The notes beneath the pieces are model-generated. The model was not told where the DNA came from. It saw nothing but the letters and a program-made list of their open reading frames with translations, and ran no database searches. The position numbers and the translations under genes were made by a program. A stretch of 64,000 nt of DNA. It comes from Candidatus Omnitrophota bacterium. GTDB taxonomy: Bacteria > Omnitrophota > Gorgyraeia > JAHIPI01. The stretch's first letter is position 1. Each line of letters opens with the position of its first letter. Location of the stretch: assembly GCA_043800065.1 (NCBI GenBank), contig JAZDNG010000029.1, forward strand, positions 2,837-66,836, given 5' to 3'. Below are positions 3,175 to 61,177 of this stretch, piece after piece.

Positions 3175-3528
3175 ATGAACAGATTGGAGATTATGAATAA
3201 CCACGTTGCTTTAAAAGAAGAACAGACGCTTAATCTTATACGCGAGGTAGAAAAAGACCCCGCACTTAACCAAAGAACGCTTTCCCAGAAACTTAACGTG
3301 TCTTTGGGTAAGACAAACTACCTTCTTAATGAACTTGCCAAAAAAGGCGTTATCAAAATAGCCAGTTTCTCTAAAAATCCCAAAAAGGCCAAGAAGATAC
3401 GCTACATTCTTACACAAAAAGGCCTTCAGCAGAAAATAAAACTTACCTGCCAATTTCTCCAGGTTAAGGAGACGGAGTATAAAAAGCTGAAAGATGAATA
3501 TGATGAATATGTTAACGGGAGGGTATGA
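3175..3528 (+). CDS. MarR-family EPS-associated winged-helix transcriptional regulator
   Basis: 117 aa. The segment …LNQRTLSQKLNVSLGKTNYLLNELAKKGVIKI… is a wHTH resembling the small regulators found at the head of exopolysaccharide and nonulosonate loci. Its stop overlaps the pseB start (ATGA). Confidence 0.5.
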   Translation: MNRLEIMNNHVALKEEQTLNLIREVEKDPALNQRTLSQKLNVSLGKTNYLLNELAKKGVIKIASFSKNPKKAKKIRYILTQKGLQQKIKLTCQFLQVKETEYKKLKDEYDEYVNGRV

Positions 3529-11976: not shown

Positions 11977-12994
11977 AAATAAAAGAATAGGCGATAACGC
12001 GCCTGTTTTCATAATAGCGGAAATCGGGACAAATCATAACGGCGATTCGAAGCTTGCCGCGAAGCTGATCAAGGAAGCGGCGAAGGCAAGGGTAGATGCC
12101 GTTAAATTTCAGATTGTAAACCCCGAAGAAAGTTACCAGAGAGGAAGCCTTTCCTATAAAGTATTTAAGAAGGCCCGCCTTGACTTCTCTGTTTTAAGAA
12201 CGCTTAAAAAAGAAGCAGAAAGACGGGGTTTAATATTTTTCGCGACACCGGGCGATGTGTCAAGTTTAAAAGAATTGATCAAACTGGGCGTGCCTCTTAT
12301 TAAAATATCCTCTGGCTGCATGACGAATATTGTCCTACTCAGAAAGGCGGCAAAGACGCGACTCCCCATAATAATGTCAACGGGGATGGCATATATGGAT
12401 GAAGTAAAAAACGCGGTTTTGGAATTAGAAAGAAACGGAGCGAGAGACATGGTGCTTTTGCACTGCGTGTCAAGTTATCCGGCAAAGTATGCGGACATCA
12501 ATCTTAACTCTTTGAGGACCCTTAATAATAACTTTAAATATCCTGTAGGCTATTCTGATCACACTGACGATAACCTGGCGTCATTGGCAGCTGTTTCGAT
12601 GGGCGCGGCAGCTATAGAAAAGCATTTTACCTTAAGTAGGAAACTTAAAGGCCCGGAGCACTATTTTTCCTTGGAGCCGGCGGAATTCAGGCGATTGGCA
12701 AAAGATATACGGAATGTGGAAAAGATGCTGGGTAGTTCAGAAAAAAAACCTAGCGAAAAAGAATTAAAGGCGCGAAACACTTTTCGGAGATATCTTGTCT
12801 TTATGCGCGACTTGGGCAGAGGCAGCGTTATACGGGACGAAGACATAGGCGTGAAACGGCTTAATAAGAAAATCGGTTTATCTCCTCAAAAATATGACGA
12901 TATTATAGGAAGCAAGACTTTGGCAGACGTCTCAAAAGATGATCCGGTATCACTAAGGCTGCTTAATGGCAAAAAGAGCGGGGGGATACGGTGA
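11960..12994 (+). CDS. pseI: Pseudaminic/N-acetylneuraminic acid synthase family (NeuB/PseI/LegI), GTG start
   Basis: …VFIIAEIGTNHNGD…AVKFQ… NeuB-family N-terminus. The C-terminal SAF-like tail and 344-aa length are typical. Confidence 0.75.
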   Translation: MQIKVKNKRIGDNAPVFIIAEIGTNHNGDSKLAAKLIKEAAKARVDAVKFQIVNPEESYQRGSLSYKVFKKARLDFSVLRTLKKEAERRGLIFFATPGDVSSLKELIKLGVPLIKISSGCMTNIVLLRKAAKTRLPIIMSTGMAYMDEVKNAVLELERNGARDMVLLHCVSSYPAKYADINLNSLRTLNNNFKYPVGYSDHTDDNLASLAAVSMGAAAIEKHFTLSRKLKGPEHYFSLEPAEFRRLAKDIRNVEKMLGSSEKKPSEKELKARNTFRRYLVFMRDLGRGSVIRDEDIGVKRLNKKIGLSPQKYDDIIGSKTLADVSKDDPVSLRLLNGKKSGGIR

Positions 12995-14352
12995 AAAAGG
13001 GAAACATAGTTTTGTTCTTCCCATCATATGTCGGCATGGGCACATATCATTGGTTTCCCTTTCCTTATCTATATATCGGCCCGTTTTTGGAAAAAGCCGG
13101 ATTTAAATCTGTAATTATCGACGCGAGAATCGAGCCGCAATGGAAAGAACTTTTAAGAAAATCTCTGAACGGTTCATTATGCGTGGGAATAACGGCGATG
13201 ACCGGCTCCGATATCAAGGATGCAATTGAAGCGGCTACTATATGTAAGAAGGCCGATCCAATGATGCCGGTTATTTGGGGAGGTCCGCACGCAACCGCCG
13301 ACCCGGAAGGGACCGCGAGACTAGATTACGTGGATGCCGCTGTGTGCGGCCAGGGCGAAGATGCAATGACTAAAATTGCGGAAAGGGTCTATGAGGGCAA
13401 GGATTTTTCTGGCATCCCCGGCGTGGTATACAAGAAAGGCGAATCGATTTTGAAAAATACTAAAAGCGAAGTTCCTTTTGACTACGACATCTATCCCGGA
13501 TTTCATTTGGTAGATGTAGAGAAATACCGTTCTCCGAATAACATCATATCCGTATTTACTTCCAGGGGGTGTCCATTCAGATGTTCATTCTGCACAACAG
13601 GCGATAAGGATTATTCTGAGAGGACGCTTGAACAGGTAAAGAATGAAATCTCGTTCGTGGTAGATAAGCTCAAATTCAAAAATATATTTTTTCAAGACGG
13701 CACATTCTTTGTAAAAAAGAAGAGGGTGATGAAAATAGCCGAATGGCTGGTTTCATCCGATATTAATATTAAATGGAAGGGCAAAGCAAGGACGAATTCT
13801 CTTCTTGACTATTCTGCGGAAGAACTTGCGTTGCTGAAGAAATCCGGCCTTGTATCCGTATTTTTCGGAGTAGAATCCGGCTCTCAGTCAATTTTAGACA
13901 GGATGCAGAAGGGCACGAAACCCGAAGATGCCGAAAAAAGCGCCGCGATATGCCGTGACTATGGCATGGAATTCTACGCCTCATTCATGTTCGCCGTTCC
14001 GCACGAGACTACTAAGGACCTGCAAAATACTATCGCGCACATACGTAAATTAAAAAAAATTAATCCCAAGGCGATAATCCAGAACTGCATATACATCCCG
14101 CTGCCAGATACTCCTATGTATGAAGATGCGCGCAGATGCGGATATAAACCGCCTGAAACGCTGGAGGGATGGATTGAAAGGAATATATCTTCGCGGTTTG
14201 AAGAACGTCACGATATTACCTGGATTCCTCCGAAGACACTGAAAGAGTATATAAAAATATATAACAGGGAATTCGGCGTGTATAAACATCTTTTTGAGCG
14301 CGAGAAAGAAGGGGCATACACGTCTGTTTTTAAAGAAAAGACGGAGGGATGA
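12991..14352 (+). CDS. B12-binding (class B) radical SAM enzyme, paralog 2
   Basis: …TSRGCPFRCSFCT… Cx3Cx2C cluster. N-terminal B12-like domain with GQGEDAM. 453 aa. Confidence 0.7.
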   Translation: MKKGNIVLFFPSYVGMGTYHWFPFPYLYIGPFLEKAGFKSVIIDARIEPQWKELLRKSLNGSLCVGITAMTGSDIKDAIEAATICKKADPMMPVIWGGPHATADPEGTARLDYVDAAVCGQGEDAMTKIAERVYEGKDFSGIPGVVYKKGESILKNTKSEVPFDYDIYPGFHLVDVEKYRSPNNIISVFTSRGCPFRCSFCTTGDKDYSERTLEQVKNEISFVVDKLKFKNIFFQDGTFFVKKKRVMKIAEWLVSSDINIKWKGKARTNSLLDYSAEELALLKKSGLVSVFFGVESGSQSILDRMQKGTKPEDAEKSAAICRDYGMEFYASFMFAVPHETTKDLQNTIAHIRKLKKINPKAIIQNCIYIPLPDTPMYEDARRCGYKPPETLEGWIERNISSRFEERHDITWIPPKTLKEYIKIYNREFGVYKHLFEREKEGAYTSVFKEKTEG

Positions 14353-15029
14353 ACATGAAAAAGATCTTAGTGGTCGCAGCGCATCCTGATGACGAAGTAT
14401 TAGGCTGCGGCGGAACCGTCGCTCGAATGATAGCGGAGGGCAATGAAGCATATACGCTCATACTGGGGGAAGGCATAACTTCGCGATATCCCAAAAGCTC
14501 AAATAGGATGAAGAAAGATCTGAGGGAGCTTAGAAAGGCAATAGGGAAGGCCAACCGTGTCATAGGCGCAAAGAGTGTCTTTCCGTTAAATTTTCCTGAC
14601 AACAGGTTCGATACCGTTTCGACGCTTGATATAGTCAGGAGCATAGAAGCTATAAAGAATAGAGTCAAGCCGCAAGTTATATTTACGCACCACTGGCGCG
14701 ATTTGAACATAGACCATAGGGTGGCTTTTAACGCCGTTCTCACGGCATGCCGGCCCGTAGAAGAGGAGACCGTAAGCGCGATTTATTCTTTTGAGATACC
14801 GTCTTCAACGGAATGGAATTACCCTTACACCTTTGCGCCGAATCTATTTGTGGATATAACGGCGATGTTGAGTAGGAAAATTTCGGCAATGAAATGCTAT
14901 GCGACCGAACTGAGAAAATTTCCTCATCCACGGTCTCCCAGGGCTGTTGAGGCGCAGGCTGCAAAATGGGGAAGCGTTGTTTCCAGAAATTATGCCGAAG
15001 CGTTTGAAATCGTGAGAATGATAAAATGA
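14349..15029 (+). CDS. PIG-L/LmbE-family N-deacetylase
   Basis: ILVVAAHPDDEVLGCGGTVA… is the canonical LmbE AHPDDE metal-binding motif. Confidence 0.75.
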   Translation: MNMKKILVVAAHPDDEVLGCGGTVARMIAEGNEAYTLILGEGITSRYPKSSNRMKKDLRELRKAIGKANRVIGAKSVFPLNFPDNRFDTVSTLDIVRSIEAIKNRVKPQVIFTHHWRDLNIDHRVAFNAVLTACRPVEEETVSAIYSFEIPSSTEWNYPYTFAPNLFVDITAMLSRKISAMKCYATELRKFPHPRSPRAVEAQAAKWGSVVSRNYAEAFEIVRMIK

Positions 15030-16006
15030 AATATATAAGCCTATTACGCGCCACGGAAGATGATGGCATACATATATTAAACTGGAGAAATGATCCTACG
15101 GTGCAGAGCAATTTCTTTGACTCCAGGCGTATTTCATTTGAGGAACATATGAGATGGTATAAAGAAAAGCTGCGCGACCCGGATGCAGCTTTATATATAA
15201 GCCGATACGGCAATGACAGGATAGGCGTAATACGCTTCGAAAAGAAAAAGGCCGCCGTGTCTGTAAGCGTCAACGTTGCTCCTCATCTTATCGGAAAGGG
15301 CTTTGGAAGCGAGATCATACGCCTCGGCACTGAGCGCTATTACGCCGAGACAAAACAGAACGTACCTGTCGTAGCCGAGATAAAAATTGAAAACATTTCC
15401 TCTCAAAAAGCGTTCCGGAAGGCCGGATACAACAAGAAGACAAAGGATAAGGCGAAGATTGTTTTTATTAGGAAGCCCGAAGACACGTGTATACGTGATA
15501 AAGAAATCTGTTTCCTGCCTTTGCAACAAAAGCATATAAATAAAATATACCTCGGATGGCTGAATGACCCTGACGTGACCAAGTACCTTGAGACAAAGAA
15601 GTCGACCGAAGAGGAACTCAAAACCTATTATAAGAATATTTTGGGCAACATCAATGTGATGATTTTTGCCATTGAGGTTCGTAAGAGGCATATCGGCAAT
15701 GCAAAACTTGAAGTAAACTGGAAGCACGGGTATGCGAACTTCGGCATCATGATAGGTGATAAAAAGGAGTGGGGCAAGGGGTACGGAGCAAGAGTGGCGC
15801 GCCTTATTGCAGATTATGCCATAAACAGGTTGAACCTTTATTCAGTAATTCTGGGGGTATACGGTAATCATACTGCCGCAATAAGGTCGTACATAAAAGC
15901 CGGCTTTCATATAAAAGGCCGGATGCGTGGTATGTTAGATTTTGAAGGCAAGCGTGTTGATAAGGTATTTATGGGTATTTCGCGGAAAGAGTTGGAGGTG
16001 CGGTAA
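15026..16006 (+). CDS. Tandem GNAT N-acetyltransferase (two PseH-like domains)
   Basis: Two about 160-aa halves each carry GNAT-like motifs. The N-terminal …ILNWRNDPTVQSNFF…EEHMRWY… resembles PseH. Confidence 0.55.
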   Translation: MKYISLLRATEDDGIHILNWRNDPTVQSNFFDSRRISFEEHMRWYKEKLRDPDAALYISRYGNDRIGVIRFEKKKAAVSVSVNVAPHLIGKGFGSEIIRLGTERYYAETKQNVPVVAEIKIENISSQKAFRKAGYNKKTKDKAKIVFIRKPEDTCIRDKEICFLPLQQKHINKIYLGWLNDPDVTKYLETKKSTEEELKTYYKNILGNINVMIFAIEVRKRHIGNAKLEVNWKHGYANFGIMIGDKKEWGKGYGARVARLIADYAINRLNLYSVILGVYGNHTAAIRSYIKAGFHIKGRMRGMLDFEGKRVDKVFMGISRKELEVR

Positions 16007-17614
16007 ATGGCAGGTACGCAATTTCCGGTTGACATATACGCCGTAAAAGAATACGGCGTCAAAAAATGGCAGGGCGAGTTCTTCTGGCCGGTATCGGATG
16101 ACGAGTTTGTAAAACTTGGTACGGAGATCGACCGTTATCTGAAAGACGAGATCAATAGGCAATCTGGCGAAATGAGTGATCTGCTGTTAATCTATAGTTC
16201 GTTGCGTGCGGAATACCTGTTGTTTTTCCATGCGCTGAAAGTCGCCCAAAGAGTAAAGGCGGCGGGCAAGGAGTTAATGTATTCGGATAAGACTTTATGG
16301 TATAAAGAAATTGCATCCGGCGAGCGCATGGAAATTCCGAAGCTCAGAAGAGGCAAGGCAAAATATACGTTTATTAACAGGATAAAAGTAGAGGCAGCCA
16401 GGATTATTTGGCGTATTCTATATAACGATAGGCTAAGCAAGGTTTTCAACCCGAAGGAGAATAAAGAAATTGTTTACATATTCAACTCTTTGACTCCGCT
16501 TATGAAGCTTTATATGAAAAATTCACCCTATACGTTTAACATGACTTCAGAGCGAGACTGGGCAGAGGATAGTTCTTTTGTCAGCATACCCGACAATCTG
16601 CTCAATTCTATAGAGGATACCTCACGAGCCATCTCGGCCAACTTGGCGTCAACTGCGGATAGGAATGGGATAGAACTTTCGGATAATCATAAGGGCTATC
16701 TCACTAAGCTTACCGAAAGCATGCTCACAGACGCGGCAAGGATAATGTATTCAATAAAACCCAAAATAGAGGACAGACGTAATGCGCGGTTTTTTTTGTC
16801 AACGTTCGTCAGTTATTTTCCGAGGGCGCTTGCCGTTCTTGCCCGGAAGAATGGCGGCCATGTAACTACCTTCAGTCACGGCGGTAGCATAGGCCTTTAC
16901 GATGCATCCACAATGGCTTTTCAGGAATTCGCGGTTTCAGACGAATATGTCACCTATAACAAGAAGAGCACAGAGCTTTTTGAACGTATTAAGAATAATA
17001 ACCCCGCTCTCCGGAATAACGATACGCTCATAACATCGTGCGATGACAATGCATATGAAAATATGTGGCTGATAAACCGCAATAAGCCACTGCCGAAAGA
17101 AATAAAGAAAGTCATGATTATAGGATATCCCCATAACCAAGGGAGGAAGTACCATGCGCCCGGTTCAGTGTCCCTCATCCAGCTCGATCTTGAATTACGC
17201 CTGGCCGATTTTTTAAGAGGGCATGGATATGATGTATTCTATAAGGCGCATCCTGACAGAATTGCCGAAGTAAAGGGAGTCTTTGACGACAGCGCCAAAG
17301 TACTGGAAGGGTATTTTCAGAATTACATCGATAGCGTCGATGCATTTATATTCGGCAGCATAAGGACAACGGCATTTTTAGTAGCGCTGTGCACGAATAA
17401 GCCGGTAATCGGATTTATGATGGAGAACGAAAGATTTAAACCCTTTCCTGAGGCGCTAGAAAGTCTTAAAAAAAGATGTAACATGGTAAAGGCAAAATTT
17501 GACGAGCATAACCGTATCGTTTTCAACGAAAAAAAACTTTCTGATGCTTTAGCCCAAAAACCGACTCAACCAAATACCGAATTTATTGAGAAGTATATAT
17601 TTCCGGAAAAATAA
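16007..17614 (+). CDS. Hypothetical protein, candidate GT-B ulosonic/nonulosonic-acid transferase (HP motif)
   Basis: 535 aa. The C-terminal region (…VMIIGYPHN…VFYKAHPDRI…) contains the K-x-HP motif shared by bacterial sialyltransferases and KpsC/KpsS Kdo transferases. No other recognisable family. Confidence 0.3.
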   Translation: MAGTQFPVDIYAVKEYGVKKWQGEFFWPVSDDEFVKLGTEIDRYLKDEINRQSGEMSDLLLIYSSLRAEYLLFFHALKVAQRVKAAGKELMYSDKTLWYKEIASGERMEIPKLRRGKAKYTFINRIKVEAARIIWRILYNDRLSKVFNPKENKEIVYIFNSLTPLMKLYMKNSPYTFNMTSERDWAEDSSFVSIPDNLLNSIEDTSRAISANLASTADRNGIELSDNHKGYLTKLTESMLTDAARIMYSIKPKIEDRRNARFFLSTFVSYFPRALAVLARKNGGHVTTFSHGGSIGLYDASTMAFQEFAVSDEYVTYNKKSTELFERIKNNNPALRNNDTLITSCDDNAYENMWLINRNKPLPKEIKKVMIIGYPHNQGRKYHAPGSVSLIQLDLELRLADFLRGHGYDVFYKAHPDRIAEVKGVFDDSAKVLEGYFQNYIDSVDAFIFGSIRTTAFLVALCTNKPVIGFMMENERFKPFPEALESLKKRCNMVKAKFDEHNRIVFNEKKLSDALAQKPTQPNTEFIEKYIFPEK

Positions 17615-17644: not shown

Positions 17645-18577
17645 ATGAAAATTTTAATAACGACAAGTTCGTTTGGAAAATACGATAGGATTCCGCTCGA
17701 TAAGCTCCGTTCGGCGGGCCTGGAGATTATTATGAACCCCTTCGGCCATACCTTGTCTAAGGAGGAGGCGCTGGAATTATATACCCCGGACATAGAGGGC
17801 GTCATAGCGGGCGTCGAGAATATCACAGAAGAGATGATTTTAAGGGCGAAGAACCTAAAGGTGATTTCCCGTTGTGGAATCGGGTTAGATAATATTGATG
17901 CTAAAGCGGCAAAACTGCGCAATATAAGAGTGCTTAATACGCCAGAACCCGTAATAGATGCTGTAGCAGAACTGACTCTATGCTTCATTTTGTGCTGTCT
18001 GCGGAATGTACCCGCTGCCGATAACAATATGCACCGCAGCGTTTGGGATAAGCCGACGGGTTTATTGCTAAAAGGCAAGATATTAGGAATTGTCGGATTG
18101 GGAAATATCGGCAAAAGGGTAGTAGAATTGACGGGCGCTTTTAAACCGCAATTCTTGGCTTACGACAAGAAAAAAGACACTGCTTTTGCAAAAAAATATA
18201 ATGTGATTTTTAAGAATTTAGAGACATTGCTTTCGGAATCGGATATAGTGAGCCTGCACCTGCCGCTTACGGAAGAGACAAAGCGCTTATTGAATGCGGG
18301 GAATCTAAGCCTTATGAAGCTAAGCGCTTTTTTGATAAATACGTCCAGGGCGCAAATCATAGATGAAAATGCTCTAATCGGCGCCCTAACGCGGAAACAG
18401 ATAGCCGGTGCGGCGTTGGATGTTTTTGAAAAAGAACCCTATGCCGGCCCGTTGACCGGACTTAGCAATGTCATATTGACGCCGCATATCGGTTCTTACA
18501 CAAAAGAGGCGAGAAGTGAGATGGAGCTTCAGGCAGTCGACAATTTAATAAAGGCATTGTTGGGATATGGGAGATAG
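17645..18577 (+). CDS. D-isomer-specific 2-hydroxyacid dehydrogenase (glycerate/phosphoglycerate dehydrogenase-like)
   Basis: NAD-binding GKILGIVGLGNIGKRVV motif. Overall 2-Hacid_dh organisation with a catalytic His/Glu/Arg region (…LTPHIGSYT…). Confidence 0.75.
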   Translation: MKILITTSSFGKYDRIPLDKLRSAGLEIIMNPFGHTLSKEEALELYTPDIEGVIAGVENITEEMILRAKNLKVISRCGIGLDNIDAKAAKLRNIRVLNTPEPVIDAVAELTLCFILCCLRNVPAADNNMHRSVWDKPTGLLLKGKILGIVGLGNIGKRVVELTGAFKPQFLAYDKKKDTAFAKKYNVIFKNLETLLSESDIVSLHLPLTEETKRLLNAGNLSLMKLSAFLINTSRAQIIDENALIGALTRKQIAGAALDVFEKEPYAGPLTGLSNVILTPHIGSYTKEARSEMELQAVDNLIKALLGYGR

Positions 18578-19253
18578 TTCTAAAAAGAATCAAGCGAATA
18601 TAGATAAATACAGCGTTTTTTTCTTCGATTTCGACGGTGTAATCGTTGACAGCCTGGATATCAAATCTCAGGCATATGCCGAGCTTTTTGAGGGCTACGG
18701 AAAAGACGTTGTCAGAAAAGTGATGGATTATCACTTAAGCGAGGGGTGGGCATTGTCGCGCTACGATAAATTTAAATATTATTACAAAAACGTCTTACAC
18801 AAGAAAATAACCCCCGCAATAATAAATGAGCTCGACAAACGGTTTTCTGAGTTGGTGGAGCAAAAAGTAACGAAAGCGCCTTTTATCAAAGGCGTAATAG
18901 AGTTTTTAGAGGCGCTTAAAACGCGCGGGAAAGAATGTTTTATAATTTCCGCAACGCCCGAAAAAGAAGTAAAGCGGATAGCGGAATCAAAAAGGATAGA
19001 CAGCTTTTTTAAGGAAATCATCGGCTCTCCAAGGACAAAAAAAGAGAGCATGAGGTATCTGCTTAGGCGATATAAAATAAATCCTGCCGCAGCAGTTTAT
19101 TTTGGCGACACAAAAAGCGATTATGAAGCTGCCCTTGAAAACGCGATAAATTTTGTAGGCATAGACTATGACGGCAACAAGGAGCTCGAAACATTACATG
19201 GTATATTTAAGGTAAAGGATTTTTCACATTACACGATGAGGAGGGATAAATAA
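18567..19253 (+). CDS. HAD-superfamily hydrolase (phosphatase, subfamily IA)
   Basis: FFDFDGVIVDS motif I (DxDG), and later …FGDTKSDYEAA… motif IV. Confidence 0.7.
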   Translation: MGDSSKKNQANIDKYSVFFFDFDGVIVDSLDIKSQAYAELFEGYGKDVVRKVMDYHLSEGWALSRYDKFKYYYKNVLHKKITPAIINELDKRFSELVEQKVTKAPFIKGVIEFLEALKTRGKECFIISATPEKEVKRIAESKRIDSFFKEIIGSPRTKKESMRYLLRRYKINPAAAVYFGDTKSDYEAALENAINFVGIDYDGNKELETLHGIFKVKDFSHYTMRRDK

Positions 19254-19254
19254 G

Positions 19255-20016
19255 ATGTCGGAATTACTCAAAACAAAACTAAAAAGGCAAGTACTTACAA
19301 TAGGTTCATGGATTACGTTTGGGCATACTTCCATCGCTGAAATTATGGCGAAAGGCGGCTTTGATTGGCTGACAGTGGATATGGAGCATTCTGCAATCAC
19401 GCTCAGCGAGGCGCAAAAGCTAATCCAGATTATTGAACTTGCCGGTATTGCGCCGCTGGTTAGGGTCGGCGAAAACGACGCATGCCTTATAAAACGGGTT
19501 ATGGATGCAGGCGCACACGGAGTAATTGTGCCGATGGTTAATAGTAGAGAGGAAGCGATAAAAGCAGTGGACGCTGTCAAGTATCCGCCGGCAGGCAGAA
19601 GAGGCGTGGGGCTCGCGCGAGCCCAGGGCTACGGCCTGGAATTCGAAAAATATAAGAAACGCATAAATAAAGAAAGTATAGTTGTGACCCAGATCGAAAG
19701 CATAGAGGCTATTGATAATTTGAAAGAGATATTAGAAGTTGAAGGGGTGGATGCAAGCATTATCGGCCCTTACGATCTATCCGCTTCCCTGGGATATCCG
19801 GGCGAATTTGAAAGGAAAGAAGTGAAGGAGGCAATAAAAAGATATATAAGGGTATGCAAAGAGCTTAAGAAGTCTGCGGGACTGCACGTTGTTCCTCCAG
19901 TTGCAAAAAAACTTGATGATGCAATAGAGAAAGGTTTTAAGTTTATAGGATTCGGATTTGATGCGCTTTTTTTAGGCCAGAAAATTAAAGAGGAGTTAGA
20001 AAAAATAAAGAGATGA
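19255..20016 (+). CDS. HpcH/HpaI-family class II (pyruvate-dependent) aldolase
   Basis: …SWITFGHTSIAEIMAKGGFDWLTVDMEHS… and the …PMVNS.EEA… pattern are characteristic of HpcH/HpaI and citrate-lyase-beta-like aldolases. Confidence 0.7.
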   Translation: MSELLKTKLKRQVLTIGSWITFGHTSIAEIMAKGGFDWLTVDMEHSAITLSEAQKLIQIIELAGIAPLVRVGENDACLIKRVMDAGAHGVIVPMVNSREEAIKAVDAVKYPPAGRRGVGLARAQGYGLEFEKYKKRINKESIVVTQIESIEAIDNLKEILEVEGVDASIIGPYDLSASLGYPGEFERKEVKEAIKRYIRVCKELKKSAGLHVVPPVAKKLDDAIEKGFKFIGFGFDALFLGQKIKEELEKIKR

Positions 20017-20777
20017 ATATCATAGGCATAATTCCTGCAAGGATGGCTTCAAATAGATTTCCCGGCAAACCCTTGGCAGAGATAATGGGCAAGGCAATGA
20101 TATATCACGTCTACTGGCGAAGCAGGATGGCAAGGAGTTTGAATGAAGTCTATCTTGCTACGTGCGATAAGGAGATAGAGCGGTATTGCCGGGAAAATAA
20201 AATGAATGTAATAATGACCAAAGATACACACCAGCGCGCTTCGGACAGGGCCGCGGAAGCGCTAAAAAAAATAGAGAAGAAAACGGGCAGGAGAGCCGAT
20301 ATCGTTGTTATGATTCAGGGGGATGAGCCGATGCTTGTTCCTAAAATGATAGATGCCGTACTTCGGCCCATGTTGAAAGATAAAAGCATTTCTGTGGCAA
20401 ATCTTATGTACGAAATTAAAAGCGCGAAAGAAGGCCATAATCCCAATATAGTAAAGGTCGTAAAGGATAAGGATAATTACGCCCTTTATTTTTCCAGGGA
20501 AGCCATACCTTCGGAGAAAAAGGCAAAAAAAGGTATAGTGAAGTACAAACAGATTGCCATTATTCCCTTTAAGCGGGATTTTTTGATAACTTTCAATAAA
20601 CTTCCCCAGATGCCCTTGGAGATCATTGAATCGGTTGATATGTTGAGAGTTTTGGAGCATGGGTATAAGGTAAGGATGGTTATGTCTCCGGTTAATACAT
20701 ATGGAGTAGATACGCCCGGCGATTTTAAAATGGTAAGAAAACTAATGAGCAGGGATCACTTGATTTCGCGCTATTAA
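20013..20777 (+). CDS. KdsB-like CMP-ulosonic acid cytidylyltransferase (CTP_transf_3)
   Basis: IIGIIPARMASNRFPGKPLAEI N-terminus as in CMP-Kdo synthetase. This is a second cytidylyltransferase in the locus. Confidence 0.7.
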   Translation: MNIIGIIPARMASNRFPGKPLAEIMGKAMIYHVYWRSRMARSLNEVYLATCDKEIERYCRENKMNVIMTKDTHQRASDRAAEALKKIEKKTGRRADIVVMIQGDEPMLVPKMIDAVLRPMLKDKSISVANLMYEIKSAKEGHNPNIVKVVKDKDNYALYFSREAIPSEKKAKKGIVKYKQIAIIPFKRDFLITFNKLPQMPLEIIESVDMLRVLEHGYKVRMVMSPVNTYGVDTPGDFKMVRKLMSRDHLISRY

Positions 20778-20806
20778 TGGATAATTTTTAGCAAAAGGAG
20801 CCAAAG

Positions 20807-21850
20807 ATGAAACATGGAAAGAAATTAGCCGTTGGCATCGCTGGTTATGGCGTTGTCGGCAAACGCCGACGCGAAGTTATAGACCAACATCCGAATTTGC
20901 ACACTGTCGCCGTATGCGACCAAAGATTTGATAAATCAGGCGCTATGCCGGACGGCGTCCAATATTTCAGTAGTTACCACCGACTTCTCAAGGAGCCGCT
21001 TGATTTACTATTCGTATCTTTGCCTAATTATTTGGCCGCAGAAGTGACTATGGCCGGCCTTAAAAAAGGCCTCCATGTTTTTTGCGAAAAGCCACCGGGT
21101 CGCGATGTTCAAGATGTTGAACGGGTAATTGAGGTCGAAAAAAAACACCCCGGGCTTATATTAAAGTATGGTTTTAACCACCGTTATCATGACTCTGTCC
21201 GCGAGGCCCTGCGAATTATCAAATCGGGTGAATTGGGAGAGATTATTAATATGCGCGGGGTATACGGTAAAGGCAAGATCGTTTCTTTTTCCAGCGGCTG
21301 GCGTGCTGAACGAAAGCATGCCGGAGGCGGTATTTTACTCGATCAGGGCATCCATATGGTGGACCTGATGCAGCTGTTCTGCGGCGATTTTACAGAGGTT
21401 AAAAGTTTTGTTTCAAATAAGTACTGGAAGCATGATCTGGAGGATAATGCTTACGCAATAATGCGTGACAGCCGTGGCCGCGTGACAATGCTACATTCAA
21501 GCGCTACTCAATGGCAGCATCGATTTACTCTTGATATAGCCCTTACCAATGGTTTTTTAGAGCTGCACGGAATTCTTTCCGGCTCCAAAAGTTATGGCGG
21601 GGAAAAACTTGTGGTTGGAAAAAGAGACGAGTCTGACGTAGGTACGCAATGGCATAAAACAATTAACTACCTTGAGGATAACTCCTGGCGCGACGAGATT
21701 TACGAGTTTGCCAACGCTATTATTAATGGCGATACTATCAAATCAGGCGGCAGCTTAGACGCCTTAGAGACCATGAAACTGGTGTATCGTATTTACTACG
21801 CTGATGCTGAATGGCGCCGGGCTTACAATATCGCCAATCCGGACACCTGA
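20807..21850 (+). CDS. Gfo/Idh/MocA-family NAD(P)-dependent oxidoreductase
   Basis: LAVGIAGYGVVGKRRREVI Rossmann N-terminus. …EKPP… motif. Confidence 0.75.
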   Translation: MKHGKKLAVGIAGYGVVGKRRREVIDQHPNLHTVAVCDQRFDKSGAMPDGVQYFSSYHRLLKEPLDLLFVSLPNYLAAEVTMAGLKKGLHVFCEKPPGRDVQDVERVIEVEKKHPGLILKYGFNHRYHDSVREALRIIKSGELGEIINMRGVYGKGKIVSFSSGWRAERKHAGGGILLDQGIHMVDLMQLFCGDFTEVKSFVSNKYWKHDLEDNAYAIMRDSRGRVTMLHSSATQWQHRFTLDIALTNGFLELHGILSGSKSYGGEKLVVGKRDESDVGTQWHKTINYLEDNSWRDEIYEFANAIINGDTIKSGGSLDALETMKLVYRIYYADAEWRRAYNIANPDT

Positions 21851-21934
21851 AAGCATGCAGAAAGCGAAGAGCTGTTAAAAACATAAAATATTCAGACCTT
21901 TAACAAAAAACATTCAGCAGGATAAAGAAAGAAA

Positions 21935-23515
21935 ATGAGAATCCTCTTTTTATACCCCAATAAAGTAATGGCAACACGTATGCCACTTGGCATCGGTTAT
22001 CTGTATTCGTATCTGAAAAAAAATGGCCATGATGCTGAGGTTTTTGATACGACATTTTTTAAATGCGGCAACATTCAAAATGATGAAGAATTGCGCGCCT
22101 CATCATTGCAGGTACGTAATCCGGATTTTAAAAAATATAACTTAATAGAGAAAAATGTCGATATTGTTGCTGAACTTGAGCGAAAAATCCAGTCATTTAA
22201 ACCGGATATGATCGCTATGAGCGTTACAGACCCTAATTACAACTTTGGTTTGGAATTGTTGAAAAAGATTAAAAACAAATACAGCAATATCATAACGGTA
22301 GTAGGCGGGGCAACTGTTACGTTTTCTCCAGAGGAAGTAATTGCTGAAGATTGTGTGGATATTATATGTATCGGCGAAGGAGAGGAAGCGATGAGTGAGC
22401 TTTGCAACGCAATACAGCAGGGAAAAGATATAAAAAACATAAAGAATATGTGGGTTAAAGAAAATGGGAAGATTTACAAGAATGATGTCAGGCAATTACG
22501 GGACGTTAATGAAATTTTTCATCCGAACTGGGATATTTTTGATGAGAGGCACCTCTTACGGCCCTTAGGCGGCAAAATGTACCGGATGGGTATATTTTAT
22601 ATGACTCGGGGGTGCCCTTTTCGTTGTACATACTGTGGTAATTTTGCCTTGTCAAGAATGTATGAGCATAAGGGCTCACTTTACAGAGTAAAAAAACCCG
22701 ATTTCTTAATTCAAGAATTAGTATTCTATAAGAAAAAATACAATTTGAATTTTATTTTTTTTACCGATGATCTTTTCCCCCTTCACAAGCCTGAAATCAT
22801 AGATGATTTTTGCAGGCTTTATAAGAAACAGGTGGGACTTCCTTTTTCTGTTGCATTGCGTCCGGAACTTATAACTGAAAAGGATTTCGCCAAGATTGTC
22901 GATGCCGGTTGCCGTAATATCTGCGTGGGATTGGAGTCAGGCAACCCCGGAATAAGAAAGGATGTCTTGGGAAGGGGGTATAAAAACGATGATCTAATTC
23001 GCGTTTTTGGCTTCGCCCGAAAATATAAAATACGCAGCTCTGCCTTCAATATGATAGGCATACCCCATGAAACCAGAGAAAACATTTTTGAAAGTATAGA
23101 GCTTAATAGAAAAGCCAAACCAACCTCTACCACGCTTACTTTTCTTCATCCTTATCGTGGAACAGGCTTAAGGAGTTTATGCATCAAAGAGAAATTTTTT
23201 GACCCCAGTCGAGAAAAAGAATACGAAAATGTTTATAGAGTGGAATCATGCCTTAACCTGCCCACAATTTCTAATAAAGAATTGAGAGGTTTGTTTAAGA
23301 CATTTCAATTATATTTTAAACTCCCCAAAATTTTCTATCCATTAATAAGAATAGCGGAAGGGGATTCATTTTTAGCGAAAGTTATTTTTTACATGTTAAA
23401 ACGAATGTTCTACTATATCACCGATAAAGAATCAAAATGGGATTTTACGGCCTCAGGCCAAAAAGAGCAGGAAAAAGAAAGGAAAGATTGTGAAGAACAT
23501 AAAGTCTTTATTTAA
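21935..23515 (+). CDS. B12-binding (class B) radical SAM enzyme, paralog 3
   Basis: …MTRGCPFRCTYCGN… cluster. GEGEEAM B12-domain motif. 526 aa. AT-rich codon usage. Confidence 0.7.
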   Translation: MRILFLYPNKVMATRMPLGIGYLYSYLKKNGHDAEVFDTTFFKCGNIQNDEELRASSLQVRNPDFKKYNLIEKNVDIVAELERKIQSFKPDMIAMSVTDPNYNFGLELLKKIKNKYSNIITVVGGATVTFSPEEVIAEDCVDIICIGEGEEAMSELCNAIQQGKDIKNIKNMWVKENGKIYKNDVRQLRDVNEIFHPNWDIFDERHLLRPLGGKMYRMGIFYMTRGCPFRCTYCGNFALSRMYEHKGSLYRVKKPDFLIQELVFYKKKYNLNFIFFTDDLFPLHKPEIIDDFCRLYKKQVGLPFSVALRPELITEKDFAKIVDAGCRNICVGLESGNPGIRKDVLGRGYKNDDLIRVFGFARKYKIRSSAFNMIGIPHETRENIFESIELNRKAKPTSTTLTFLHPYRGTGLRSLCIKEKFFDPSREKEYENVYRVESCLNLPTISNKELRGLFKTFQLYFKLPKIFYPLIRIAEGDSFLAKVIFYMLKRMFYYITDKESKWDFTASGQKEQEKERKDCEEHKVFI

Positions 23516-24137
23516 CGAAACCGATAACGTTGAGGAATTTTCAAAGGGTTATTTCGACTACCTTCATAGCCTTTTGAAGCAGCTTGATACCGGCGCAATT
23601 GCAGGATTCATCGGGGAGCTCGAAACGGTGCGCCGGAATCAAAATACAATATTTTTCATAGGCAACGGCGGCTCCGCTTCCACCGCTTCGCACATGGCTA
23701 ACGACTTTAGCTTGGGCTCCAACGCCTGCGATGATGGCTTGCCGCTACGCTCATTGGCGTTGACAGATAATTCAGCGGTTATGACAGCCGTATCCAATGA
23801 CCATGGCTACCAGAACATCTTTATTCATCAACTTCAGGTTCATTATAGGCCCGGAGATAAATTGGTGGCTATTTCAGCAAGCGGAAACTCACCTAACGTA
23901 GTTGCGGCTGCAAAATGGGTCAAAAAACAAGGCGGCCTGACTATCGGATTCGTTGGCTTCGACGGCGGCAAATTAAAAGATATTTGCGACATAACCATTC
24001 ATGTCAAGACGCCAAAGGGCGAATACGGCCCTGTCGAAGACATACACATTATCCTCGATCATTTGACGTACACGTGGCTGTGGTACCAAAAACGCAGGAA
24101 AAGAGAAACCGAAATATCGGCAGCCAAAAACGGTTAA
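23490..24137 (+). CDS. SIS-domain sugar-phosphate isomerase (GmhA-like), GTG start
   Basis: …IFFIGNGGSASTASHMANDF… matches the GmhA-type SIS signature. Confidence 0.7.
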   Translation: MKNIKSLFNETDNVEEFSKGYFDYLHSLLKQLDTGAIAGFIGELETVRRNQNTIFFIGNGGSASTASHMANDFSLGSNACDDGLPLRSLALTDNSAVMTAVSNDHGYQNIFIHQLQVHYRPGDKLVAISASGNSPNVVAAAKWVKKQGGLTIGFVGFDGGKLKDICDITIHVKTPKGEYGPVEDIHIILDHLTYTWLWYQKRRKRETEISAAKNG

Positions 24138-24146
24138 AGTGAAAGT

Positions 24147-25331
24147 ATGGCAAAGAACATAATTTTTTTAACAAAGAAAAGAAGTCTTGCTGGAATAGAC
24201 CAAGCATTGCCCATTTTTATGGAAATGAGAAAAATATCACCTCAAAGCAATATAATTATTGTTTTCGGCGATAAAAAAATTTATGACCTTACGAAAAGAA
24301 ATTATATCCTTTTGGAAGATATAGAATATGTAAACGGCAAAATGTATGTTCTCAGAGGAAAAAATAAACTCATTACATTATTTAAAATCTTGAAATTCGT
24401 TTTTCTGCTTGCTTTTAAAGAGAATATTATTTTAAGAGAAACAGACAATCTTCCTTGGCACAATATAACCATGAAGCTAATAAAAATGATTTCAAGGGTT
24501 GTCCAAATAAGGGTTTTTTTGGCAGTGCAAAATCCCATTTATTTAAAAAATCTCAATGAATCATCTCTGCTTTATTGGAAAAGAGAAGGAAAAGCAGTTT
24601 TTAAAAATCCTGTTAAGGGAGAATTTGATTATTTCCTATCGGCATTGAGTCCCGGTCAGGTTGAGGATGTTTTTAATGTTAAAGCCCCCAGAAATAAAAT
24701 AGTTGAAGTCGGCTATACTCACGGATTGTCTATATGGCGAAAATATATGGATGACGCCATTAAGCGAAATAAAGTAATAAACAATGGGAAATACTTTCTA
24801 TATGTACTTGCATACCTAGGCAAGCGACGGACCAACTTTGATGAGCCGGAGATAATCGACTTATTAGAAGAATCGTTAAATATTTTAAAAAAATATAATG
24901 GCAAAATCAAGACAATTTTCAAACCCCATCCTGTTACGGACATGGGGAGAGTCAAAAAACTGCTTGATAAAATTAGTTACTCAAACTATGTAATTGATTA
25001 TACCCACCCCTTTATTTTATCATCCAAGGCGCAATTTGTTTTTGGAAATGTCTACTCTTGCACAATGTTAGACGCATATTATCAGGGTAAACCCATTGTA
25101 GAGTATTGCCAATATGACTCAGAACTTTTTATCAGAATGAATAGGCAGTCATGGGGCGGTAGCAGATTCTGCGATTTTTTTATTTATCGCGACAAGAAAA
25201 AACTGGATGAGGTTTTGGATAGATTGATTAATAATGAAATAAAAGTAGAGCGAGAGCCAAAATTTATGCAGGATAATTTTCCAGATACGCCGCCGCAATT
25301 TTATGAATTTTTACATAAGCTGCTTTCTTAA
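24147..25331 (+). CDS. Hypothetical protein, second candidate HP-motif glycosyltransferase. About 30% GC.
   Basis: 394 aa. …IFKPHPVTD… HP motif as in the 16007 ORF and ulosonate transferases. Markedly AT-rich relative to its neighbours. Confidence 0.3.
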   Translation: MAKNIIFLTKKRSLAGIDQALPIFMEMRKISPQSNIIIVFGDKKIYDLTKRNYILLEDIEYVNGKMYVLRGKNKLITLFKILKFVFLLAFKENIILRETDNLPWHNITMKLIKMISRVVQIRVFLAVQNPIYLKNLNESSLLYWKREGKAVFKNPVKGEFDYFLSALSPGQVEDVFNVKAPRNKIVEVGYTHGLSIWRKYMDDAIKRNKVINNGKYFLYVLAYLGKRRTNFDEPEIIDLLEESLNILKKYNGKIKTIFKPHPVTDMGRVKKLLDKISYSNYVIDYTHPFILSSKAQFVFGNVYSCTMLDAYYQGKPIVEYCQYDSELFIRMNRQSWGGSRFCDFFIYRDKKKLDEVLDRLINNEIKVEREPKFMQDNFPDTPPQFYEFLHKLLS

Positions 25332-25345
25332 CAAAAGGGAAGAGA

Positions 25346-27103
25346 ATGAGATATCTTTTTGAGTATTTTAGGCACTTCAAGGCATTTGTGGGCCGCAAAG
25401 TCTATTATTTATTTTTTCTGATGCTGATAGCGGGTTTTATAGAAGCGGTCAGCATAACACTTTTTTTGCCTATCCTGCAAAATGGTTTCGGAAGCGACAA
25501 ATTATCGAAAGCGTTGAAGGTTATATTAGATTTCTTCCATATCGGGTTTTCCTTCAGTCTTTTTTTGCTGCTCATTCTCGTGTTTTTTATATTCAGGGCG
25601 GCATTTCTGATTTTTTATGAATATTATTCCGGCAAGGTTACTTCTAGTCTGCTGATCGCCTTAAGGCGCAAACTTGTGGAAGATGTTTTTTCTGCTGATT
25701 ACCTTTATATCATCAAAAAGGAGGTAGGCTATATTAACAATGCGGTTGTCCGCGAAATAGCCTGCATTGTCGAAGCGTTTCAGACCTTTTTGCAGGTATT
25801 GAAATACACGATATTGGCCGCGGTGTATATCGCGCTTTCCATGATATTGAGTTTTAAAATAAGTCTTGTCGTCTTGGTAATCTGTCCCGTTATCATTATT
25901 TGTACGATGAAACTTAACCGGTTGACTAACAAACTTTCTTTGGCTTACAGCGTTTCGTACGGCAAATTTAACTCCATTCTTTTTCAGGCGTTAAGTAAAT
26001 TTAAATACTTGAAGGCGACTTTCTCGAGCCAAAGGATTTCAAAGATTATTGATGCGCAGAATAAAAATTTGGGGGATATAAGGTTTAAGCTGGTGCTTTT
26101 GCAGTCTATCTCAACAAACGCATTTGAACCCATGGTCGTTTTCTTTGTTGCGGGGCTTCTCTTTTATTATGTCGTGGGTTTAGGCAGAAGCGTCAATGAA
26201 ATAATATTTTTGATTTTCCTGTTTTTGCAGGCCGCCAGGGGATTTCTGACCCTCCAGTCATCCTATCGGAGATTTCTAGCCTCAAAAGGGAGCATAGATA
26301 TCTATAAAGAGTTCCAGGGGGAATTGGAAAAGAACAGAGAGTCTCTAAACCTGGAGGGATTCAAGCCGGATTTTAGTAAAGAGATCCTCATCGTGGACGC
26401 CACGGTGATATTCCCAAACGGTAAAAAGGCCCTCGACAATGTCAGTATAACCATTAAACCAAAGTCAGTAGTAGCCTTGGTAGGCCATTCCGGTTCCGGT
26501 AAATCTACAATCGCTAATATGATCACAGGGATATTAAAACCGGCAAGCGGAGAGATCTTATTTGGCGACGTTAGCTACGATAAGATTAACCTAAAAATCT
26601 TGCGCGAGAATGTAGGATATGTCACCCAGGAAGATATAATATTCAACGCAAGCATCAAGGATAATGTTTCCCTGTGGGGCGAGAATATCGACGAGAATAG
26701 ATTGTCCAGGGCTATAGCAATGGCTCACATACGGGGCTTTGTGTCCGATCTTGTCGAAAAAGAAGATGCCTTGCTTGGTGACAACGGCCTGGATGTATCG
26801 GGAGGGCAAAGGCAACGCATAACCATAGCCCGCGAATTATACAGGGATACAAGACTTCTGATATTAGACGAAGCGACAAGCTCCCTCGACAGTAAGTCCG
26901 AAAATCAGATCTACGAAAATCTGAAGGGTTTAAAAGGAGAGAAGACCTTGGTCGTCATTGCTCACCGACTTTCGACGATAAGAAACGCGGATTATATATA
27001 CGTCTTAGATAGCGGCAGGGTTATAGAAGAAGGAACCTACGGAGATCTTTATGAAAAGAAAGGCGAGTTCAAAACGATGATAGAGGAGCAGAAACTTGTC
27101 TAA
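25346..27103 (+). CDS. ABC exporter, fused permease plus ATPase (MsbA/type I exporter-like)
   Basis: Six N-terminal TM helices. Walker A GHSGSGKST, signature LSGGQRQR, Walker B LLILDEATSSLD. Confidence 0.8.
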   Translation: MRYLFEYFRHFKAFVGRKVYYLFFLMLIAGFIEAVSITLFLPILQNGFGSDKLSKALKVILDFFHIGFSFSLFLLLILVFFIFRAAFLIFYEYYSGKVTSSLLIALRRKLVEDVFSADYLYIIKKEVGYINNAVVREIACIVEAFQTFLQVLKYTILAAVYIALSMILSFKISLVVLVICPVIIICTMKLNRLTNKLSLAYSVSYGKFNSILFQALSKFKYLKATFSSQRISKIIDAQNKNLGDIRFKLVLLQSISTNAFEPMVVFFVAGLLFYYVVGLGRSVNEIIFLIFLFLQAARGFLTLQSSYRRFLASKGSIDIYKEFQGELEKNRESLNLEGFKPDFSKEILIVDATVIFPNGKKALDNVSITIKPKSVVALVGHSGSGKSTIANMITGILKPASGEILFGDVSYDKINLKILRENVGYVTQEDIIFNASIKDNVSLWGENIDENRLSRAIAMAHIRGFVSDLVEKEDALLGDNGLDVSGGQRQRITIARELYRDTRLLILDEATSSLDSKSENQIYENLKGLKGEKTLVVIAHRLSTIRNADYIYVLDSGRVIEEGTYGDLYEKKGEFKTMIEEQKLV

Positions 27104-27107
27104 AATT

Positions 27108-42366: not shown

Positions 42367-42395
42367 TTCGTATAAACGAAAAGGGGGATAAATAA

Positions 42396-43419: not shown

Positions 43420-43422
43420 CGC

Positions 43423-44163: not shown

Positions 44164-44169
44164 CGCGTC

Positions 44170-44680: not shown

Positions 44681-44700
44681 GATACGGTAAGATATACAAA

Positions 44701-45024: not shown

Positions 45025-45025
45025 A

Positions 45026-61172: not shown

Positions 61173-61177
61173 ACTTT

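Follow-up and report, generated by a model that had tools for sequence, protein, structure and literature searches.

A 64,000-nucleotide stretch of DNA from the metagenome-assembled genome of an uncultivated Candidatus Omnitrophota bacterium (contig JAZDNG010000029.1, positions 2,837 to 66,836; this whole stretch is referred to below as the window) carries, at positions 17645-25331, a set of genes whose best explanation is a cassette that is self-contained, has been shuffled horizontally, and serves to make a second acidic sugar in nucleotide-activated form. Its core pair consists of a class II (metal-dependent) 2-oxoacid aldolase of the HpcH/HpaI family and a cytidylyltransferase of the KdsB family, and we consider it probable, though with some reserve, that the cassette provides an aldolase-based route, independent of phosphoenolpyruvate (PEP), to a second acidic sugar activated with cytidine monophosphate (CMP). 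As far as we are aware, all routes to CMP-activated keto-acid sugars that have been characterised, be it to 3-deoxy-D-manno-octulosonic (Kdo), deaminated neuraminic (Kdn), sialic, pseudaminic, or legionaminic acid, rely for the assembly of the carbon chain on a PEP-dependent synthase of the KdsA or NeuB type.

Calling of open reading frames (ORFs) combined with Pfam and NCBIfam scans located, on the forward strand, all activities that an original prediction, made from the DNA letters alone, had named for this region. These are a D-isomer 2-hydroxyacid dehydrogenase (17645-18577; Pfam 2-Hacid_dh_C, 5e-53), a HAD_2-type phosphatase (18567-19253; Pfam HAD_2, 1e-22), the aldolase (19255-20016; Pfam HpcH_HpaI, PF03328, 6e-39), the cytidylyltransferase (20013-20777; Pfam CTP_transf_3 and the NCBIfam KdsB models), a Gfo/Idh/MocA oxidoreductase (Gfo; 20807-21850; Pfam), and a GmhA-like SIS_2 sugar-phosphate isomerase of 215 residues (23490-24137; Pfam SIS_2, 1e-16). 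The interval 17645-24137 also encodes, on the same strand, a B12-binding radical SAM enzyme of 526 residues (21935-23515; Pfam B12-binding and Radical_SAM), which the prediction had omitted. Since the intergenic distances lie between -26 and +84 nt, with three overlaps, the cassette genes form one operon; the start of the cytidylyltransferase gene overlaps the stop of the aldolase gene by 4 nt, and the two are translationally coupled.

The aldolase

Against PF03328, the aldolase scores 133.9 bits, above the Pfam gathering cut-off of 25, and its His45, Arg70, Glu148, and Asp174 are invariant among 32 orthologues. In HpaI numbering, the catalytic residues are His45 and Arg70 and the metal ligands Glu149 and Asp175; the four invariant residues are the counterparts of this catalytic and metal-binding set.

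The nearest characterised relatives of the protein are YfaU/RhmA, HpaI, and GarL, with YfaU as the closest relative in the PDB (161 bits), as one would expect if it were a catabolic aldolase of aromatic or sugar-acid degradation that had come to lie in this locus by coincidence. Its scores against the corresponding NCBIfam equivalog models, however, amount to about half the cut-offs (196.7 against 368.8 for TIGR02311, 177.1 against 441 for NF007521, 167.5 against 393 for NF007849, and 166 against 406.75 for TIGR03239). No hydratase or dehydratase partner was found among the window genes scanned against Pfam or in the related loci with precomputed Pfam annotation, and no transporter partner was apparent in the latter. 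Moreover, the aldolase gene is embedded in a coupled operon and is constantly linked to a cytidylyltransferase gene inside glycan islands. The catabolic explanation is therefore close to refuted, and the protein can be separated from the HpaI, RhmA, and GarL type. The original prediction had named kinship with catabolic HpaI/HpcH enzymes that have hydratase partners as grounds for its own refutation, and no such grounds emerged from these scores and annotated loci. That prediction had also placed an HpcH-type aldolase where a PEP-dependent synthase is expected, and this holds: no kdsA-like gene was found among the window ORFs scanned against Pfam, which were all but six ORFs between 42 and 60 kb.

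In a collection of 5.8 billion proteins, the best 120 matches of the aldolase are 63-100% identical to it, and one NCBI protein is 100% identical. The named sources among these 120 are Omnitrophota, Thermodesulfovibrionia, Ca. Wunengus, Margulisiibacteriota, and Nealsonbacteria; an orthologue is also present in a Saccharibacteria genome, and across these groups, Saccharibacteria included, the orthologues share 55-81% identity. Two peptide patterns specific to the aldolase clade matched at least 562 metagenome stretches; in a contig scan based on this one aldolase, the patterns were too specific and no more than 3 loci emerged. A look-up of the exact aldolase sequence gave no match.

The cytidylyltransferase

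The cytidylyltransferase scores above the NCBIfam cut-offs for KdsB (295 against 255 for NF009905, 274.7 against 193 for NF003952, and 162.7 against 155.2 for TIGR00466), and its best PDB match is KpsU from E. coli. Its identity amounts to only 37-39% with E. coli KdsB, KpsU, and PDB entry 3OAM, compared with a median of 57% for 35 cassette orthologues from other phyla. Throughout this clade (36 of 36 sequences; E. coli numbering), R10, R15, K19, Q98, D100, R157, and D235 are invariant. Of these, R10, R15, K19, D100, and D235 are the catalytic residues binding cytidine triphosphate (CTP) and Mg by which we assessed membership of the KdsB family, and all of them are present. Judged by these residues, the substrate is almost certainly a 2-keto acid sugar.

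That this sugar is probably not Kdo is suggested by the positions at which the clade departs from canonical KdsB, represented here by three sequences that agree at H181, E210, and Q211. These three residues, which presumably line the sugar site in the KdsB and KpsU structures, are replaced almost without exception (H181Q in 36 of 36 sequences, E210D in 34, and Q211M in 35), and further fixed changes in the clade, likewise at positions on which the three canonical sequences agree, are Y187F, S74R, D50C, and T125N. In E. coli KdsB, the C5 hydroxyl group of Kdo is held by Y185 and Q98 (PMC12199768). Of these two Kdo contacts, Q98 is kept and Y185 is replaced throughout the clade, by isoleucine in 26 of the 36 sequences. 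With Y185, a Kdo contact, among the conserved positions of KdsB that have been exchanged, Kdo is unlikely as the product, and the substrate of the enzyme, and with it the product of the cassette, is probably another sugar.

The KdsB scores and the match to KpsU would also suit a capsule-type, KpsU-like CMP-Kdo synthetase that is fed by a housekeeping KdsA, while the aldolase, dehydrogenase, and phosphatase make a hydroxy-acid substituent, such as a glyceroyl- or dihydroxybutyryl-like group, on pseudaminic acid or the glycan. Such a division of labour has its attractions: a 2,4-dihydroxy acid would be the natural result of an aldolase acting ahead of a 2-oxoacid reductase, an ATP-grasp ligase is encoded in the neighbouring nonulosonic acid branch of the window, and the cassette often adjoins nonulosonic acid genes. 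The replacement of H181, Y185, E210, and Q211 throughout the clade speaks against it, however, as do the translational coupling of the aldolase and cytidylyltransferase genes and the lack of an acyl-activating enzyme accompanying the cassette in the clustered loci. The cassette also occurs without nonulosonic acid genes in Acuticoccus (see below) and in 18 of 24 complete neighbourhoods. Furthermore, orthologues of the cytidylyltransferase are present in Saccharibacteria and Nealsonbacteria, members of the candidate phyla radiation (CPR), in which there is no lipopolysaccharide (LPS) or Kdo pathway. The enzyme is thus probably not simply the kdsB product serving LPS, which supports the original prediction on this point, and the cassette is independent of LPS. 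We regard the CMP-Kdo explanation as unlikely and favour a PEP-independent route to a different sugar.

Conservation of the cassette

We called and clustered ORFs in 63 related loci of at least 3 kb, four of which were set aside as duplicate or non-orthologous, leaving 59 with an aldolase orthologue. Partners were counted within seven ORFs of the aldolase gene, and a neighbourhood was considered complete if it had at least five ORFs on each side, which was the case for 24 loci. A cytidylyltransferase of the CTP_transf_3 family, KdsB-like or NeuA-like, was present in 52 of the 59 loci and in all 24 complete neighbourhoods (KdsB-like in 20 of them). A 2-hydroxyacid dehydrogenase was found in 38 loci and 19 complete neighbourhoods, and an epimerase-type short-chain dehydrogenase/reductase (SDR) or a Gfo oxidoreductase in 40 and 22; the corresponding numbers are 19 and 9 for a HAD or IMPase phosphatase, 12 and 6 for NeuB, and 8 and 5 for an SIS protein. 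No recurrent unassigned partner family was seen near the aldolase among the 59 loci, in which singleton ORFs were not annotated. The link between aldolase and cytidylyltransferase is unambiguous and not a chance grouping, and its recurrence across related loci supports the proposal of a second, separate CMP-activated acidic-sugar branch. Literature searches found no published account of an aldolase-plus-cytidylyltransferase cassette.

The cassette is conserved across phyla. In loci from Thermodesulfovibrionia (L001), Nealsonbacteria (L005), and Saccharibacteria (L007), as well as in locus L003, the aldolase gene adjoins orthologues of three other cassette genes, with identities to the window proteins of 64-68% for the aldolase, 58-64% for the KdsB-like enzyme, and 41-49% for the dehydrogenase. 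The HAD orthologues in these loci are 34-35% identical, except in L003, where an Inositol_P-family phosphatase fills the slot; this locus additionally carries the Gfo oxidoreductase (74%) and the B12-binding radical SAM enzyme (68%).

Around the core pair, the remaining genes vary. One variant contains an SDR, a PF04199 'cyclase', and a HAD protein. A second, without HAD (L032, L044, L075, and L084), combines the aldolase with the dehydrogenase, an SIS protein, Gfo, a classical SDR, and a sugar-phosphate cyclase resembling 3-dehydroquinate synthase; enzymes of the latter type eliminate phosphate, a hint that the product of that variant may be carbocyclic or rearranged in some other way. In a third (L050, L066, and L070), which has no 2-hydroxyacid dehydrogenase, genes for Gfo, a methyltransferase, a SPASM radical SAM protein, a class I/II aminotransferase, and a double GNAT protein lie between the aldolase gene and the KdsB-like gene. 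An aminotransferase and GNAT beside Gfo are typical of sugar tailoring, and the arrangement would suit a derivative of the same sugar that bears an N-acetylated amino group. Such swapping of tailoring sets around a core pair is what a sugar family undergoing diversification looks like.

A related cassette is also found in a cultured organism. By tblastn of plasmids, an aldolase 43% identical to that of the window was detected on plasmid NZ_CP094833.1 of Acuticoccus sp. I52.16.1, followed by genes annotated as 'acylneuraminate cytidylyltransferase family protein' and 'phosphoglycerate dehydrogenase' (42% identical to the window enzyme), a HAD hydrolase, and an NAD(P) oxidoreductase. This copy lies at 40686-45138 of the plasmid. 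Genes of nonulosonic acid or amino sugars were not seen near it, and since it stands without them, the cassette is self-contained.

A natural swap is seen in a metagenomic locus (L092, continued in L094) that is syntenic with the window on both flanks, including the gene of a 535-residue protein upstream of the cassette, an ATP-binding cassette (ABC) exporter, and rpsO-pnp-ftsK-rodZ. The slot of the aldolase cassette, which is missing there, is taken by a legionaminic-type branch, followed in L094 by a homologue of the 394-residue protein encoded at the end of the cassette. In another locus, L095, the gene order of the window is repeated, again with a homologue of the 394-residue protein after the cassette. 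Because a legionaminic-type branch replaces it in L092/L094, the cassette can be regarded as a sugar branch open to exchange, and as the equivalent of one that makes a CMP-nonulosonic acid.

That equivalence could be taken to mean that the aldolase replaces or supplements NeuB, condensing pyruvate with a hexose intermediate of the nonulosonic branch to give a second nine-carbon acid or an epimer. Some loci, such as L041, indeed have the aldolase directly beside PseB, PseC, and a NeuA-like cytidylyltransferase, and NeuB is not seen there. NeuB, however, is also present in the window and in many other loci, including L046, the usual partner of the aldolase is KdsB-like and not NeuA-like (20 of the 24 neighbourhoods), and the Acuticoccus cassette has no amino-sugar genes. 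The cassette is independent of NeuB, and we find this explanation very unlikely.

In several loci (L010, L011, L014, L025, and L091), either the cassette or the gene of the 535-residue family is adjoined by sulfation genes, namely a pyruvate-kinase/PUA/ATP-sulfurylase fusion, adenylylsulfate kinase, and a sulfotransferase, which suggests that these organisms have sulfated glycans.

Dehydrogenase, phosphatase, and accessory enzymes

The original prediction had mapped the locus one to one onto KdsD, KdsA, KdsC, and KdsB of the Kdo pathway, with the dehydrogenase and the Gfo oxidoreductase as possible tailoring enzymes. The individual proteins do not support that mapping. KdsD, an arabinose-5-phosphate isomerase, consists of an SIS domain and two CBS domains. 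The SIS protein of the window contains SIS_2 only, without CBS domains, and all its PDB matches are phosphoheptose isomerases; its scores against the gmhA equivalog models are also below the cut-offs (97.8 against 209.45 for TIGR00441 and 92 against 276 for a second model). Its gene occurs in only the 8 loci mentioned above, mostly adjoining that of Gfo, and it is an occasional accessory outside the core and not the counterpart of KdsD. The GmhA-like SIS protein and the HAD protein together recall the GDP/ADP-heptose pathway, which we rejected: the locus encodes neither a kinase nor a nucleotidyltransferase for heptose, and few of the cassettes include SIS.

The HAD protein is of the capped HAD_2 type and not of the KdsC (HAD-IIIA) type. 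It has an intact motif I (FDFDGV), with DxD at residues 21-25, and gives only weak matches in the NCBIfam scan, with no match to a KdsC model and a score of 26.9 against a cut-off of 44.6 for HAD-SF-IIIA; no PDB relative was found at 1e-8. Since non-orthologous phosphatases, HAD or the Inositol_P-family enzyme of L003, fill the same slot, dephosphorylation would seem to be a real step.

The dehydrogenase has its best PDB match in 1WWK (216 bits), an archaeal phosphoglycerate dehydrogenase (PGDH). At the position of the cationic phosphate-binding loop of PGDH (VRSxTK), it reads IAGVEN, with AGTE as the family consensus, and its score against TIGR01327, the SerA equivalog model, is 247 against a cut-off of 454. 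As the phosphate loop is missing, we rejected a true 3-phosphoglycerate dehydrogenase, and with IAGVEN in place of VRSxTK, 3-phosphoglycerate is an improbable substrate; in sequence, the loop more closely resembles those of glyoxylate/hydroxypyruvate reductases. The dehydrogenase is a core member of the cassette, being the second most constant partner of the aldolase, and not the facultative tailoring enzyme that had been predicted. Two roles appear viable, the supply of hydroxypyruvate as aldol donor or a redox reaction at a distal 2-hydroxyacid end.

For the Gfo oxidoreductase, a tailoring role does seem appropriate. In the PDB, it comes closest to inositol 2-dehydrogenase, DgpA, and glucuronide 3-dehydrogenase, its gene is found in 17 of the 59 loci, and it is probably a dehydrogenase of sugar secondary alcohols that tailors the product. 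The B12-binding radical SAM enzyme, all of whose NCBIfam matches are far below the cut-offs, is probably a C-methyltransferase or another radical tailoring enzyme. A cytidylyltransferase, a B12-binding radical SAM enzyme, and a fold related to PEP mutase would also be at home in a phosphonate pathway, which we rejected, as there is no PEP mutase and the HpaI catalytic residues are kept.

Transferase candidates and export

In agreement with the original prediction, the locus encodes two cytidylyltransferases, at 6530-7261 and 20013-20777, and two proteins with an HP motif. The first of the latter, the 535-residue protein (16007-17614, forward strand), has a predicted GT-B-like fold and the motif YKAHPDR; the second, the 394-residue protein (24147-25331, forward strand), has a predicted GT-B fold and the motif FKPHPVTD, containing KPHP. 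Neither these two proteins nor the large unassigned proteins of related loci have a Pfam match at E<=5. Their AlphaFold2 models have pLDDT values of 90.5 and 92.6, respectively. In Foldseek searches, the model of the 535-residue protein matched GT-B enzymes (probability 1.00, E of about 1e-4), with a local match to the KpsC beta-Kdo transferase, and that of the 394-residue protein matched GT-B glycosyltransferases and UDP-GlcNAc 2-epimerases (probability 1.00, E of about 1e-10). K413, H415, and P416 are invariant among the 42 members of the 535-residue family; in the 394-residue family, the HP motif has an invariant P260, and its His is found in the majority of members. The two families show weak profile similarity around the K-x-H-P segment, which lies in the C-terminal domain of the 535-residue family. 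Beta-Kdo transferases and transferases of CMP-sialic acid share an HP motif, and the former are not recognisable from sequence (PMC10148158).

We rejected the 535-residue protein as the cassette's own transferase, as it accompanies the pseudaminic acid branch in L092, which lacks the aldolase cassette; there, its gene lies between those of a GNAT protein and the ABC exporter. It is probably the transferase of the pseudaminic acid branch. The 394-residue protein, which accompanies the variable branch, is a candidate transferase for the second CMP-sugar.

Downstream of the cassette follow two more genes on the forward strand. An ABC exporter with a fused membrane domain (25346-27103; Pfam ABC_membrane and ABC_tran), of the MsbA/PglK type, is 57% identical to the exporter of L092, whose gene directly follows that of the 535-residue protein. 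The island then ends, ahead of rpsO-pnp, with the gene for a 700-residue fusion of a class I methyltransferase and an APH-type kinase (27096-29198; Pfam Methyltransf_11 and APH). Kdo kinase shares a fold family with APH-type phosphotransferases, which have the protein-kinase fold, and the fusion protein may phosphorylate and methylate the glycan.

Proposed pathway

From the gene content, we infer a route whose steps, their order, and donor and acceptor would be as follows. With pyruvate, or possibly hydroxypyruvate, as its 2-oxoacid donor and an aldose or its phosphate as acceptor, the aldolase would form a 4-hydroxy-2-oxo (2-ulosonic) acid, and the HAD phosphatase would dephosphorylate the intermediate where it is phosphorylated. 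The KdsB-family enzyme would then link the anomeric C2 hydroxyl group to CMP, while Gfo, the B12-binding radical SAM enzyme, and the SIS protein would tailor the sugar or its precursor. Finally, the GT-B protein with the HP motif at 24147-25331 would transfer the sugar, and the ABC transporter would export the glycoconjugate. The product would be a Kdo-like acid, though probably not Kdo, made without use of a PEP-dependent synthase. The non-canonical route to a CMP-activated 3-deoxy-ulosonic acid that had originally been predicted is thus supported in its aldolase-based core, but not in its step-by-step parallel to the Kdo pathway.

Some HpcH/HpaI class II aldolases accept hydroxypyruvate as donor. 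A more specific and decidedly tentative variant, which we think doubtful, is the following: sugar acids of a new class, activated with CMP and distinct from both Kdo and the nonulosonic acids, would be widespread in uncultivated bacteria including the CPR, with the glyoxylate/hydroxypyruvate-reductase-like dehydrogenase supplying hydroxypyruvate and the class II aldolase making a 3-hydroxylated, and thus non-deoxy, 2-ulosonic or ulosaric acid that is tailored by Gfo and the B12-binding radical SAM enzyme. A conversion of glycolate to glyoxylate, which with pyruvate would give 4-hydroxy-2-oxoglutarate, was rejected by reasoning, since that compound forms no cyclic hemiketal as a KdsB-type enzyme needs.

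Several points count against the PEP-independent route as a whole. Class II pyruvate aldolases are reversible, and those that have been characterised are catabolic. We know of no precedent for such an aldolase in nucleotide-sugar synthesis. The main unexplained point is the dehydrogenase, which is present in 19 of the 24 complete neighbourhoods and has no necessary role in the simple scheme, whereas a HAD or IMPase phosphatase, for which the scheme has a place, is present in 9 of them (about 40%). The cytidylyltransferase, having passed the KdsB thresholds, could still activate Kdo itself. In addition, the neighbourhood counts rest on crude ORF calling and clustering, and all loci were chosen via the aldolase, some perhaps from closely related organisms.

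Comparison with known systems

As in the CMP-Kdo pathway, the cassette ends in a KdsB-family cytidylyltransferase with all catalytic residues kept, a phosphatase and an SIS isomerase are encoded nearby, and the order from 2-keto acid sugar through dephosphorylation to CMP activation would be the same. It differs in having a class II pyruvate aldolase instead of PEP-dependent KdsA, a GmhA-like SIS protein without CBS domains, a HAD protein that is not of the KdsC type, a dehydrogenase as a core member, and a cytidylyltransferase with replaced KdsB positions including Y185, and in being found in LPS-free bacteria.

With the pathways of pseudaminic, legionaminic, and neuraminic acid, which combine a NeuB-type synthase with NeuA, PseF, or LegF, the cassette shares the type of variable surface-glycan island, the style of the tailoring genes (methyltransferases, aminotransferase/GNAT, SDR), the exchange for a legionaminic-type branch in a syntenic relative, and, in some loci, a NeuA-like cytidylyltransferase as partner. 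In contrast to these pathways, it has neither NeuB nor hexosamine-modifying genes, its usual partner is KdsB-like, and its condensing enzyme comes from another superfamily and would use a free 2-oxoacid instead of PEP. In the Kdn pathway (Kdn-9-P synthase, the HAD enzyme Kdn-9-P phosphatase, and CMP-Kdn synthetase), a deaminated keto-acid sugar is likewise formed from a sugar phosphate and then undergoes HAD dephosphorylation and CMP activation, but Kdn synthase is NeuB-like and PEP-dependent, and there is no dehydrogenase in that route.

The HpcH/HpaI aldolases (HpaI, YfaU/RhmA, GarL, and hydroxyketoacid aldolases) have the fold family and the His/Arg/Glu/Asp catalytic set in common with the cassette enzyme and, as a family, make or cleave 4-hydroxy-2-oxoacids, including 2-keto-3-deoxy sugar acids. 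The cassette aldolase, however, belongs to a separate, highly conserved clade that fails three equivalog cut-offs, and its context is biosynthetic instead of catabolic and coupled to nucleotide activation. The two HP-motif proteins, for their part, resemble KpsC/KpsS of GT107, WbbB of GT99, and the GT-B sialyltransferases in their GT-B-type fold, the HP motif in the C-terminal domain, the lack of a recognisable sequence family, and a location adjoining CMP-sugar genes. Against the beta-Kdo transferases and GT-B sialyltransferases, however, only fold and motif match, with Foldseek TM-scores of 0.3-0.55, and the best matches are generic GT-B enzymes.

The surrounding glycan island

The cassette belongs to a surface-glycan island that extends from about 3.5 to 29.2 kb of the window and has every gene on the forward strand. 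At its upstream edge lie genes of a PMT_2 GT-C protein, a TPR protein, and an FkbM methyltransferase on the reverse strand, and downstream it is followed by rpsO, pnp, ftsK, rodZ, miaB, and uvrA. Within 22001-26000, which holds the radical SAM, SIS, and 394-residue protein genes and the start of the ABC exporter gene, the G+C content falls to 0.395 and then 0.355, whereas the surroundings have 0.42-0.48; this fits a recent acquisition of that part of the cassette.

The first branch of the island (3525-16006, forward strand; Pfam and NCBIfam matches) is of the pseudaminic acid type. It comprises genes for PseB, PseC, an aldo-keto reductase, a PseF-like CTP_transf_3 protein, a class-III aminotransferase, a PseG-like/ATP-grasp fusion, a B12-binding radical SAM enzyme, NeuB/PseI, a second B12-binding radical SAM enzyme, PIG-L, and a PseH-like GNAT protein. 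This branch is syntenic with that of L092, to which its proteins are 55-82% identical, except that the two radical SAM genes are missing there. In the window, these two genes (10588-11976 and 12991-14352) flank NeuB/PseI, and their products might catalyse C-methylation or chain extension of the nonulosonic acid. CMP-activated C10 ulosonic acids, the origin of which is not known, have been reported in Magnetospirillum (2026 preprint, 10.64898/2026.04.20.719630). The aldo-keto reductase, the class-III aminotransferase, and the PseG-like GT28 domain fused to an ATP-grasp ligase, unusual additions to such a branch that are all encoded within 5661-10591, suggest an amino-acid or amine substituent on the sugar; in L092, the fusion is represented by two separate genes. 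The housekeeping region further downstream contains a Memo-AMMECR1 fusion (46071-47678) and a Fic-domain protein (61124-62233), which are not related to the cassette.

Implications

The hypothesis of an aldolase-based pathway is directly testable, since the Acuticoccus strain whose plasmid carries a related cassette is in culture. The labels 'KdsB' and 'HpaI-like aldolase', as assigned by present annotation pipelines, hide such a pathway, and its enzymes could find use as biocatalysts in the production of nucleotide-activated ulosonic acids from inexpensive 2-oxoacids. If true, the aldolase-based route would be a second, independent solution to the synthesis of CMP-activated keto-acid sugars, and the surfaces of many uncultivated lineages, among them Omnitrophota, the CPR, Nitrospirota, and relatives of the anammox bacteria, would carry an additional monosaccharide.

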